Notes under the pieces: model-generated
Databases searched by the model: none
Seen by the model: only the letters and a program-made list of their open reading frames with translations
Told to the model about the DNA's origin: nothing
Virus record (IMG/VR): IMGVR_UViG_3300042474_001633
Location: 1-64,000 of that record
DNA: 64,000 nt
Strand: one strand, 5' to 3'
DNA from: a virus
Program-made: the position numbers and the translations under genes
In this document: one piece after another, positions 55,805-57,312 of the stretch
Layout of the letters: each line of letters starts with the position of its first letter
Position numbering within the stretch: the stretch's first letter is position 1

Positions 55805-56155
55805 CTAAACCTGGGCGCGGACATTGGCGTTGAGGGTTCGCAAGGCATCAATACTCGTCCTGAGTGAAAGAAGTTTTTCTCGCTTTGCCCTAACTAGTGC
55901 TTCCGCGATTTCGTAATCCTCTTTCATTTGTTCCATCTTGTAATGAGACCATTGCTCTCTGTCGGTGATTGTTCTGTGCCCCTTGCCAGCAGCTCCTAGA
56001 TATTCTTTTGCCCATTCCGCCTTGTACCTGGCGTCTTTTTTTGCAGCGTCCACGGCGAGTATTTCAAAGTTTTCAGTTTCTTTTTCGAGCAGGTCGAGCA
56101 GTCTCATCATTTCTCGTTCAATGTCCACCTGGCTGATTGGTTGACTTCTATTCAT
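55805..56155 (-). CDS. Hypothetical coiled-coil protein
   Basis: 116-aa helical ORF overlapping the end of the RuvC-like gene. Confidence 0.65.
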   Translation of the reverse strand: MNRSQPISQVDIEREMMRLLDLLEKETENFEILAVDAAKKDARYKAEWAKEYLGAAGKGHRTITDREQWSHYKMEQMKEDYEIAEALVRAKREKLLSLRTSIDALRTLNANVRAQV

Positions 56156-56678
56156 TTTCTATCCCTTCGAGTGGGGACCAGTCTATCTTCTCTAGCGCCG
56201 AGAGAGAAATGTTTGACCACTTATATTTTGCATTTCCAATTTTTGCCAAAACCATTTCTTCAAGAACCCACGCATCGCACATATCATCAGCATGCCCCCC
56301 TTTCCAAACTATTCCCGTAATAGCTGATATTGCAGATATGACTTCTGACTTGCCAGCGTTCCCTTTGCCTGTGGCAAATTTTGCTCGACAAGTAGGAGGC
56401 ACGATTATGTATGGAATATCAAGATTTAGCAAGGCAACCCTGACAACACCGCCAAGCTCCCCAATTGAGTGAGCCTGAGAATTTCTTGATGCAAAAGAAT
56501 AACCCTCTATGGCTACCAATTGTATTTTGTTGGAAACCGCAATATTGCCAATTTCGCTGGCTATTTTCCTCAATCTTTCAGCTCCAGATAAATCAAAAGA
56601 AAGATAACCAGCTTCTCCAGCATGGCAATACCCAGTGGATGTAAGTGATAGGTCGAGACCTAGGATGTTCATGGGCAC
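56148..56678 (-). CDS. RuvC-like Holliday junction resolvase
   Basis: ILGLDLSLTSTG, VAIEGY, ELGGV, KFATGKGNA.K and DD..DA RNase H-fold acidic residues. Confidence 0.88.
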   Translation of the reverse strand: MPMNILGLDLSLTSTGYCHAGEAGYLSFDLSGAERLRKIASEIGNIAVSNKIQLVAIEGYSFASRNSQAHSIGELGGVVRVALLNLDIPYIIVPPTCRAKFATGKGNAGKSEVISAISAITGIVWKGGHADDMCDAWVLEEMVLAKIGNAKYKWSNISLSALEKIDWSPLEGIENE

Positions 56679-56693
56679 GCAAAACTCTACCCC

Positions 56694-56728
56694 ACAAACA
56701 AAGACCCGCCGGGTGTAATCCCGACGGG
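56694..56728 (-). terminator. Intrinsic terminator closing candidate sRNA B
   Basis: CCCGUCGGG-AUUACA-CCCGGCGGG (9 bp, one G.U that forms only on the minus strand) followed by UCUUUGUUUG. Confidence 0.7.
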
Positions 56729-56822
56729 AATTAACACAGACAGACGTCCATGTCTACTTTGCGTAGTTATTCACCACTAGACCTTGGACCACCTGCCTTT
56801 CTTTTCTCAGAAACGGCTGTAA
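56695..56822 (-). ncRNA. Candidate sRNA B with 16S rRNA 3'-end (anti-SD) complement
   Basis: Extended -10 TGgTACTCT (56829-56837); AGAAAGGCAGGUGGUCCAA at 56784-56802; internal hairpins; terminator; no ORF longer than a few codons behind the SD-like tract. Confidence 0.55.
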
Positions 56823-56881
56823 GACCTTAGAGTACCATTACAAAATTATTAGCTCAGGTAAAGAGATGTTGGCGCGCACAT

Positions 56882-56942
56882 AAAAAAAGAGACGCAAGAA
56901 CCGGGGGCTGCACGTTGCCCTGTGCCCCCGGCCCTCGCGCCT
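56882..56942 (-). terminator. Long intrinsic terminator hairpin (3' part of sRNA A; could also end HNH transcription)
   Basis: AGGCGCGAGGGCCGGGGGC pairs with GCCCCCGGUUCUUGCGUCU, then CUUUUUUU. Confidence 0.8.
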
Positions 56943-56958
56943 ATAACGGTCCTAAGGA
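56882..56958 (-). ncRNA. Candidate sRNA A with 5' complement of 23S rRNA helix 69
   Basis: TAGAAT -10 (56964-56969); CCUUAGGACCGUUAUAG (56941-56957); 19-bp stem with four G.U pairs; U7 tract. Confidence 0.6.
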
Positions 56959-57009
56959 TATTAATTCTACAACTGAAATGTCTTTCGTGTTGTAAACGCA
57001 AGTAATGTT

Positions 57010-57312
57010 TTAACGTTCCCAGCCGTGCTTGGCTAAACCTAAATCAAAAGCAAGCTGCGGATAGTTTCCAATTCGATTGTGACATGGCCTGCATACCGCA
57101 AGAAGATTTTCCTCATCGAGTATCGACCCACCCTGAGAGCGTCTAATTATTTCGTGAATGTCGCAACTTCTGTTACGAACATATGTCAACTTCTCGTCAT
57201 GTTCAGCAAATACAGGACACGCTTCGCAAAATGGTTTTTTTGACAAAAGTTTTTCTACGAGCGGGCGCCTCAGCAAATACTCTTCTTGTTTCTTTTTTGA
57301 ACGATATTTCAC
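57010..57312 (-). CDS. HNH endonuclease
   Basis: CEAC...DIHE...RSQGGS....NL..VCRPCHN. Confidence 0.88.
   Translation of the reverse strand: MKYRSKKKQEEYLLRRPLVEKLLSKKPFCEACPVFAEHDEKLTYVRNRSCDIHEIIRRSQGGSILDEENLLAVCRPCHNRIGNYPQLAFDLGLAKHGWER

Follow-up and report, generated by a model that had tools for sequence, protein, structure and literature searches.

The DNA analysed here (the window) comprises the first 64,000 nt of the 160,282-bp IMG/VR phage record IMGVR_UViG_3300042474_001633. Its minus strand carries a recombination and packaging operon in which a large terminase gene is followed by genes for a Rad52-like protein and a PD-(D/E)XK exonuclease, a 191-aa open reading frame (ORF) and an HNH gene; then come a 331-bp gap (positions 56679–57009), a RuvC-like resolvase gene and a ParB-like gene. 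An earlier inspection of the letters (the original prediction) had read this gap as two minus-strand RNA units, each with a tract complementary to ribosomal RNA (rRNA). Sequence and coordinates are as described there and both terminator-like hairpins are present. The two RNAs, called RNA1 and RNA2 in the following, had been sized at ~77 and ~128 nt and come out at ~78 and ~130 nt in our reading; the distance between the complementary tracts had been underestimated at ~140 nt and is actually ~150–160 nt.

Anatomy of the two RNA units

RNA1 (~78 nt, minus strand) is laid out as a −10 box, a 17-nt tract, a hairpin and a run of U residues, in that order. The −10-like box TAGAAT (56964–56969), recognized by reading the sequence, has a TG directly upstream. 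The tract, CCUUAGGACCGUUAUAG (56941–56957), is a perfect complement of C1914 to G1930 of 23S rRNA and we will refer to it as the seed. Compared with the real E. coli rrlH sequence (L082) the antisense match to 1914–1930 is exact at 17/17 nt, so that the complementarity claimed by the original prediction holds over 17 nt instead of the 15 nt listed. The target comprises the loop and 3′ strand of helix 69 together with the linker that leads to helix 70. This is the longest phage–rRNA match in the 160-kb genome, the runners-up measuring 15 and 14 nt, and simple arithmetic gives a chance expectation of ~0.09 such 17-mers per genome. Taken alone the match is only suggestive, and its significance comes from conservation.

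The seed is unpaired in the predicted fold. The hairpin that follows (56890–56940) contains 16 conserved base pairs including four G•U pairs, and sequence and fold identify the terminal U-run (56880–56889) as the tail of an intrinsic terminator. Hairpin and U-run are both present in the window; many but not all relatives have a U-run, and in many it is not a clean one after the hairpin. RNA1 and RNA2 fold well beyond shuffled sequences (z = −5.2 and −3.6, respectively). A terminator scan tool called only the second hairpin of the gap (stem 56728–56705), the loop of the first being too long for the tool. As to the −10 boxes of the original prediction, a sigma-70 scan tool called no promoter in the gap; the box of RNA1 is nevertheless upheld by its placement in the family, since a TAnnnT box ends 8–9 nt before TTAGG in 55/71 RNA1 units compared to 10–19/71 at control offsets. 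On account of this placement, the tract probably forms the 5′ end of the RNA.

RNA2 is a multi-helix RNA of ~130 nt, likewise on the minus strand, downstream of a promoter-like region (56829–56862) in which TTTACC, a 16-nt spacer and TAATGG are followed by TACTCT. This layout is kept in relatives and would represent the promoter region of RNA2, the start site being approximate. The tract AGAAAGG-C-AGGUGGUCCA (56785–56802) complements the last ~17 nt of 16S rRNA and would pair with ...UGGAUCACCU/CCUUUCU-3′ to the last base, with one bulged C and one G•U pair. The 16S ends used for the comparison were that of L082 and the actinobacterial end ...CACCUCCUUUCU (PMC12274833); the mycobacterial end is implied by the removal of the 11 terminal nucleotides by MazF-mt11 after C|ACCU (PMC12274833). 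It is this longer tract that sustains the 16S complementarity of the original prediction, whereas the bare 10-mer AGGTGGTCCA (56785–56794) is not beyond chance, a match being contained in 22/100 shuffles.

The 5′ part of RNA2 forms a hairpin in which a pyrimidine strand is paired with the purine run, and the ensuing single-stranded stretch ends in UCUAG, which is invariant in 34/34 aligned relatives. UCUAG and the next hairpin, P2 (GUGGU/ACUAC), occupy positions 56763–56781. The order of parts is then GGCAAR, which pairs with a YUUUGCU 3′ tail, a variable hairpin and a GC-rich 3′ hairpin. In folds of the window sequence, GCAAAG (56757–56762) pairs with the 3′ tail CUUUGU (56698–56703), closing a junction round two hairpins. 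The GC-rich 3′ hairpin, CCCGUCGGG/CCCGGCGGG with one G•U pair and a U-rich tail (56695–56728), is the one found by the scan tool.

The possibility that the RNA2 tract is merely the ribosome binding site of a coding gene was rejected, UCUAG giving a stop codon in one frame. There is no ATG, GTG or TTG at ribosome-binding-site spacing (5–10 nt) after the tract and no conserved ORF; an ATG present after the tract in L015 is missing from its close relative L020. Separately, GGUCCAAGG of RNA2 (56783–56791) can pair with CCUUAGGACC of RNA1 (56948–56957) over 9 bp with one bulge, a pairing that is not kept in relatives and that we judge coincidental.

Conservation of the complementarities in related phages

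To obtain a sample independent of RNA content, 80 loci were fetched by the RuvC protein. A covariance model of RNA1 has exactly one plus-strand match just upstream of RuvC in 43 of these 80 loci. In the window the model scores 72.7 bits on the minus strand, with no further copy in the 160 kb, while reverse-strand matches in relatives reach only 12–29 bits and involve the hairpin portion alone; the assignment of the strand from G•U pairs, made in the original prediction, is thereby confirmed. Exact rRNA matches of at least 13 nt in 68 unique RuvC-upstream gaps comprise 26 antisense matches, all of them to 23S 1910–1930, versus a single sense match. The exact RNA1 tract is present in more than 117 viral contigs.

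Over 64 distinct units 99.6% of the cells of the RNA1 hairpin are paired, compared to 35–55% in slid controls, and compensatory double changes occur at 14/16 of its pairs, which none of 500 shuffles attains. The tract behaves differently from the stems, with major-allele frequencies of 0.91 and 0.75, respectively, in the protein-ascertained set. Where the tract does vary, transitions that keep a G•U pair are seen at 7/8 A/C sites and pair-breaking ones at 2/9 G/U sites (Fisher p = 0.015, a rough value); G-to-A changes were not seen in the tract. For the 23S-directed RNA the comparison proposed with the original prediction thus comes out as foreseen: the guide is kept while the hairpin covaries, and G•U-compatible substitutions are favoured.

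In several lineages the complementarity is extended, running 5′-ward along 23S and always ending at C1914. The extended complement measures 21–23 nt in L166, L226 and L227 and 28 nt with one G•U pair in L108. L108 and L161 have 42 aligned nucleotides antisense to 23S, with three wobble-type transitions and zero pair-breaking transitions, and BLAST puts the L108 stretch on annotated 23S genes (E 1e-4). Overall, the length of the RNA1 complementarity ranges from 13 to 42 nt. RNA1 is not tied to HNH or RuvC, because the longer forms adjoin a ferredoxin gene, a denV-like gene or an endolysin gene. A captured fragment of ribosomal DNA (rDNA) was rejected as the origin of RNA1, the identity of the window to 23S stopping on both sides of the 17 nt. 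The sequence of helices 69 to 71 has zero base substitutions in five other bacterial lineages retrieved with intact 23S copies. That the seed is fixed among phages whose RuvC proteins share only 55–64% identity can be attributed to the universality of this target.

Relatives of RNA2 were retrieved with a search pattern that excluded the tract. All true members carry a two-part complement of the 16S tail with a duplex energy of −22 to −29 kcal/mol, compared to −3 to −17 kcal/mol for unrelated matches. The position of the bulge depends on the lineage: it lies after G7 (C, CG, CA or UC), after A8 (C or U) or after G9 (A), or is replaced by a single mismatch. Throughout the relatives both flanks nevertheless hold their register to the continuous 16S tail, and a moving bulge with a fixed register appears hard to explain except by selection for pairing with this tail. 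The most conserved portion of the tract is GGUGRUC. The plain AGGUG core, in other words, is not invariant as the original prediction would have it; what is kept, by way of the moving bulge, is the complementarity. P2 occurs as at least ten different compensatory stems, the 3′ hairpin has compensatory changes at 7/10 pairs, and the closing helix has 5–7 bp in all relatives checked, with some compensatory changes. RNAalifold run on a MAFFT alignment recovered the 3′ hairpin alone; the other helices were checked by script. Taken for both RNAs, this comparison of conserved guides with covarying stems supports a reading of the two units as antisense to both rRNAs.

Of the 69 unique regions upstream of RuvC, both RNAs are present in 22, RNA1 alone in 15, RNA2 alone in 8 and neither in 24, corresponding to an odds ratio for co-occurrence of 4.4 that is naive, without phylogenetic correction. 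The order of the two is swapped in L009, L012 and L041. From these counts and the swapped order, RNA1 and RNA2 are best described as separate modules that tend to travel together.

Several further observations concern the same slot or the same sequences. In L033 (2880–2990) the position upstream of RuvC is occupied by a different hairpin unit with a 5′ tract, ACCCGACAAGG, complementary to 23S 1941–1951, that is the helix 70/71 region with its RNase E site and MazF sites. In L047 and L073 (2580–3000 in each) the gap consists of ~350 nt of GC-rich DNA with no ORF of at least 70 aa and no Rfam match, which may encode another structured RNA. The loops of the RNA2 3′ hairpin in L003, L011, L015, L009, L050 and others often include short palindromes (GCUAGA, CUGCAG, CACGUG, GAGCUC), and CUAG recurs at two further conserved places of RNA2; the loop in the window is without a palindrome. 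Such palindromes may reflect loop–loop or pseudoknot contacts.

A scan of bacterial genomes for the RNA1 tract returned mostly 23S genes with variants and coding coincidences. It also returned a few units resembling small RNAs (sRNAs), in Myxococcus (L226, L233) and in a deltaproteobacterial metagenome-assembled genome (L227), with 21–23 nt tracts of the GCTACCTTAGGACCGTTATAG type that are antisense to 23S and are located away from rRNA genes on chromosomal contigs; these may be prophage- or host-borne members of the RNA1 family. Searches of INPHARED with the RNA1 units of two relatives yielded only rRNA contaminant records and the Paenibacillus phage Pd_22F (L288, MZ092003.1, ~83,060–83,340). 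The latter contains unannotated antisense 23S rDNA, collinear over more than 250 nt in the part read, which may be captured host DNA or an assembly artefact; Pd_22F was rejected as an sRNA carrier since this is a long antisense 23S rDNA fragment instead.

Neighbouring genes and the probable host

Both neighbours of the gap lie on the minus strand and are outside the RNA system. Upstream is the HNH endonuclease gene (57010–57312, 100 aa; Pfam HNH, E 2.7e-5; phrog_15522, E 7.6e-12), and downstream the gene of the RuvC-like Holliday junction resolvase (56148–56678, 176 aa; phrog_159, E 5e-34). A −10 box read from the sequence, TAGAGT, stands on the same strand 5 nt ahead of the GTG start of the RuvC-like gene (56676–56689). 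The layout is the same in relatives: in L003–L059 such a box precedes the start codon by 5–7 nt in nearly all cases, for which reason the RuvC-like mRNA is probably leaderless. TAGAGT would then be a leaderless-type promoter and its unit separate from RNA2. The TGGGnTAnnnT sequence upstream of the gene resembles the extended −10 boxes of actinobacteria. A riboswitch or attenuator leader of RuvC was rejected given the −10 box between the RNA2 hairpin and the RuvC start, the swapped order and the occurrence of RNA1 beside unrelated genes. In the phage as a whole ~14% of the ORFs have a leaderless-like layout with a −10 box just before the start, compared to 4% of controls, and a strong Shine–Dalgarno 5-mer is found ahead of ~20–30% of the ORFs.

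Outside the window, the phage encodes two WhiB-family proteins (L290 and L289; genome positions 111570–111767 and 142570–142761; PF02467, E ~4e-14, above cut-off). Among 14 control genomes the WhiB family was found in Corynebacterium only. Because of the two WhiB genes the host is probably an actinobacterium, and together with the −10 boxes a few bases before many start codons they make a freshwater actinobacterium the most likely one. The sequencing runs listed as containing this DNA are without exception lake-water metagenomes, and no relative of the locus was found among the cultured phages in INPHARED. A scan of the window for transfer RNA (tRNA) and tmRNA genes gave none; ARAGORN finds five tRNA genes (Ile-TAT, Met-CAT, Arg-TCT, Asn-GTT and Thr-TGT) elsewhere in the genome (114526–152302), and a 12-mer, GTTTGATGTTCT, is repeated at least seven times at genome positions 134,600–150,700, likewise beyond the window.

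Proposed antisense RNAs aimed at the ribosome

Rfam 15 has no match in the window at gathering score, the best sub-threshold matches in the gap being at chance level (E 0.56 to 8.7), and no family match was obtained on RNA1 or RNA2 in five relatives. In a literature search, no account was found of an sRNA, from phage or bacterium, that pairs with rRNA. The closest class is that of the trans-acting 5′-seed sRNAs (PMC12197685), which have in common with our RNAs a promoter of their own, a conserved single-stranded 5′ seed, a terminator hairpin with U-run and a moron-like position. In RNA1 the box places the seed at the 5′ end, on sequence evidence, and the seed is conserved and unpaired while the rest varies. 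However, the known 5′-seed sRNAs pair with mRNAs or sRNAs, whereas the conserved complement of RNA1 and RNA2 is rRNA. Work with peptide nucleic acids (PNAs) on helix 69 reportedly exists. Synthetic antisense oligomers and PNAs against rRNA (PMC12828698) are likewise short antisense molecules directed at helix 69 or the 16S tail, but they are man-made; RNA1 and RNA2 would be a natural, virus-encoded version.

Other systems are alike in part. The bS21 proteins of phages and the sequestration of the 16S tail in Bacteroidia (PMC9723584, PMC7797042) also involve a phage-borne factor at the 16S 3′ tail and a possible change in the choice of start sites, but bS21 is a protein and a ribosome component, whereas RNA2 would, as an RNA, base-pair with the tail directly. 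MazF-mt3, -mt6 and -mt11 and RelE1 (PMC12274833, PMC12620021) act on rRNA in the two neighbourhoods concerned here, at the 16S tail and at helix 70 of 23S, and in the same host phylum; these are host endonucleases that cut the sites, which the phage RNAs might cover. The C/D-box guide RNAs of archaea and eukaryotes carry 10–21 nt antisense to conserved functional rRNA, but need their boxes and partner proteins; the RNA1 sequence has neither a C box (RUGAUGA) nor a D box (CUGA), no partner proteins are known for it, and such a system is not known from bacteria. CopA and CopT of plasmid R1 are loop-initiated antisense RNAs, and for RNA1, too, pairing plausibly starts at an exposed hairpin loop and spreads into the stem; here, however, it is the target, helix 69, that contributes the loop, and the antisense strand would pair by a linear 5′ end. 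Phage single-guide RNAs (sgRNAs), whose guides match the cas9 promoter and which carry a Cas9 scaffold (preprint 10.64898/2026.06.01.729453), are phage-encoded RNAs with a 5′ guide-like tract and a hairpin behind it, but RNA1 matches rRNA and has a single, freely covarying hairpin. Its assignment as a Cas9 sgRNA or vsgRNA was rejected for want of a fixed scaffold and of further hairpins in the fold; a 7-nt likeness of the tract to the nexus of the Cas9 trans-activating CRISPR RNA (tracrRNA) was judged coincidental.

At the level of the family the observation is real and well beyond chance, and the anatomy of both genes, the conserved complementarities, the covariation of the helices, the transcribed strand and the occurrence of RNA1 in unrelated contexts are direct results of the comparison. 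From these we infer transcription, pairing in vivo and a consequence for the host, and we consider it probable, if some way from assured, that two independent antisense RNAs, directed in trans at host rRNA, are encoded in the gap. The central intersubunit bridge is formed by helix 69, and Shine–Dalgarno sequences are recognized by the 16S tail. In the mechanism we propose, transcription of RNA1 would start at or 1–2 nt ahead of the 17-nt seed, which would first meet the exposed loop of helix 69 (1914–1918) and then invade the 3′ strand of the helix and the linker to helix 70, to 1930. The single-stranded toehold AGGUGGUCCA of RNA2 would bind UGGAUCACCU of 16S, whereupon the purine run AGAAAGG, half hidden in its hairpin, would open and pair with the terminal CCUUUCU-3′. 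In this way two exposed single-stranded elements would become duplexes: one where the subunits meet, the other the 3′ tail of 16S in the 30S subunit. The targets would most likely be free subunits or rRNA in late assembly, not translating 70S ribosomes.

If pairing occurs, the consequence that we favour, tentatively and with slightly less than even confidence, is interference with subunit joining, Shine–Dalgarno recognition or late maturation, amounting to takeover or shut-off; the leaderless appearance of the RuvC gene and ~14% of the phage ORFs speaks for such an effect. Shielding of the sites against single-strand-specific toxins and exonucleases that cut rRNA is a less likely outcome of the pairing but one to be taken seriously, whereas we would assign only a small chance to some other consequence and a slighter one still to the triggering of rRNA decay.

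A number of points weigh against this picture of antisense pairing and interference. The sequences compared are phylogenetically non-independent, which makes the p-values rough. Some variants of the RNA1 tract have real mismatches, namely U-to-C changes opposite A1916 and A1919 and the types seen in L010 and L044; the idea that the change opposite A1916 tracks a host 23S change was not supported, planctomycete 23S differing at 1918 instead. Helix 69 is a closed stem in the mature 50S subunit and its invasion by the seed remains putative, and masking of helix 69 cannot tell phage from host translation. Were the 16S tail blocked completely, the phage would suffer as well, given the strong Shine–Dalgarno 5-mer ahead of ~20–30% of its ORFs. 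As for RNA2, the purine half of its tract is paired inside the RNA itself, and the AGG opposite the core anti-Shine–Dalgarno sequence (CCUCC) is the very part of the duplex that the bulge interrupts. The tract is only third in the genome by duplex energy with the 16S tail, and energy scans are non-discriminating in that chance duplexes of −25 to −30 kcal/mol arise against variable rRNA regions.

A different purpose for the same pairing would be counter-defence: the RNAs would make the 16S tail and helices 69 to 71 double-stranded, so that abortive-infection toxins specific for single strands (MazF and RelE types) and 3′ exonucleases could no longer attack the host ribosomes on which the phage depends. 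The original prediction had mentioned such a shield, and it has gained support from the probable actinobacterial host, to which the two WhiB genes point, and from the mycobacterial toxins that clip the 16S tail. MazF-mt11 cleaves at C|ACCU, so that 16S loses its final 11 nt, MazF-mt3 cleaves at U|CCUU and MazF-mt6 at UU|CCU, all MazF toxins requiring single-stranded RNA (PMC12274833), and RelE1 clips the same tail in mycobacteria (PMC12620021). What MazF-mt3, MazF-mt11 and RelE1 clip is exactly the tail covered by RNA2 (PMC12274833, PMC12620021); its GGUGRUC falls precisely on the MazF-mt11 site, and the tract extends to the terminal nucleotide of 16S. The decay of rRNA in E. coli begins with trimming of the 16S 3′ end and an RNase E cut of 23S after 1942 (PMC4931109), and an abortive-infection RNase that degrades rRNA has been reported (preprint 10.1101/2024.05.05.592566). 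Variants of RNA1 reach 1941–1952 (L108, L161), the different seed of L033 covers 1941–1951, and the patchy, moron-like distribution is typical of counter-defence genes. However, only such variants cover the region in question, the common RNA1 stopping at 1930, short of the helix-70 toxin site (1939–1944) and of the RNase E site. Neither the tail nor helix 69 can function while masked, protection would need roughly one RNA per subunit, and RNA1 is also found in phages of other kinds of hosts, where such toxins are not known. On balance we regard counter-defence as an unlikely explanation, though one of substance. Alternatively, duplexes on nascent or free rRNA might recruit RNase III or quality-control decay, and so destroy rRNA or block its maturation. 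New ribosomes would then no longer be made, and nucleotides would become available for a genome of 160 kb; textbook accounts of ribosome assembly have both target sites maturing late and still single-stranded in nascent rRNA, the perfect 17-bp RNA1 duplex is near the size of an RNase III substrate, and large phages from nutrient-poor lakes often carry members of the family. However, an RNA2 duplex with a conserved bulge hardly looks designed for RNase III, and the phage needs ribosomes until late in infection, which makes this explanation quite improbable.

Two further explanations do away with rRNA as the partner of the RNAs. The RNAs might be real but their tracts protein-binding or structural, with an incidental rRNA complement, or the units might be mere terminators or leaders of the HNH and RuvC operons. 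RNA2 does have other invariant single-stranded motifs, UCUAG and GGCAAR, without an rRNA complement, and transcription of the HNH operon could end at the RNA1 hairpin. We nevertheless give this explanation little credence, since the chance of a conserved 17-nt tract matching 23S is ~3e-7 by arithmetic, independent lineages lengthen the match along 23S, antisense outnumbers sense 26 to 1, the RNA2 bulge moves while the register to the 16S tail holds, and the units have −10 boxes of their own, other gene contexts and a swapped order. More remote still is RNA1 as a guide that steers an RNA-guided nuclease of the Cas9, IscB or TnpB type to host 23S rDNA. A 5′ guide-like tract directly followed by a long hairpin, HNH and RuvC genes on either side of the gap and the report of phage-encoded sgRNAs (preprint 10.64898/2026.06.01.729453) might suggest it. 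Against this, the neighbouring genes encode an ordinary HNH endonuclease of 100 aa and a Holliday junction resolvase of 176 aa, and RNA1 is also found without them. The hairpin changes its sequence freely by compensation and hence offers no fixed scaffold for a protein, a nexus and further tracrRNA-like hairpins are lacking, the complementarity varies from 13 to 42 nt in length, and the bias towards G•U-keeping changes fits pairing between RNAs.

Returning to antisense pairing with host rRNA, we consider it an even chance that large phages of many lineages possess natural antisense RNAs, often as a pair, with which universally conserved functional rRNA sites (helix 69 to 71 and the 16S 3′ tail) are seized. 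Base-pairing sRNAs are known as regulators of mRNAs, and viruses are known to employ proteins in attacking ribosomes. Pairing of a natural RNA with helix 69 and the anti-Shine–Dalgarno tail of rRNA would give viruses a new route by which to control, protect or destroy the translation machinery. If the interpretation is true, RNA1 and RNA2 would let a virus take over, protect or dismantle ribosomes by means of RNA alone, and would be the first natural regulatory RNAs known to target rRNA in bacteria or their viruses. As both targets are nearly universal, the RNAs are directly testable in E. coli or Mycobacterium smegmatis, and they would be natural templates for antisense antibacterials. The family may bear on the arms race with toxin–antitoxin defences that cut rRNA, and being common in lake phages it may matter for the way phages use slow-growing, ribosome-poor hosts.

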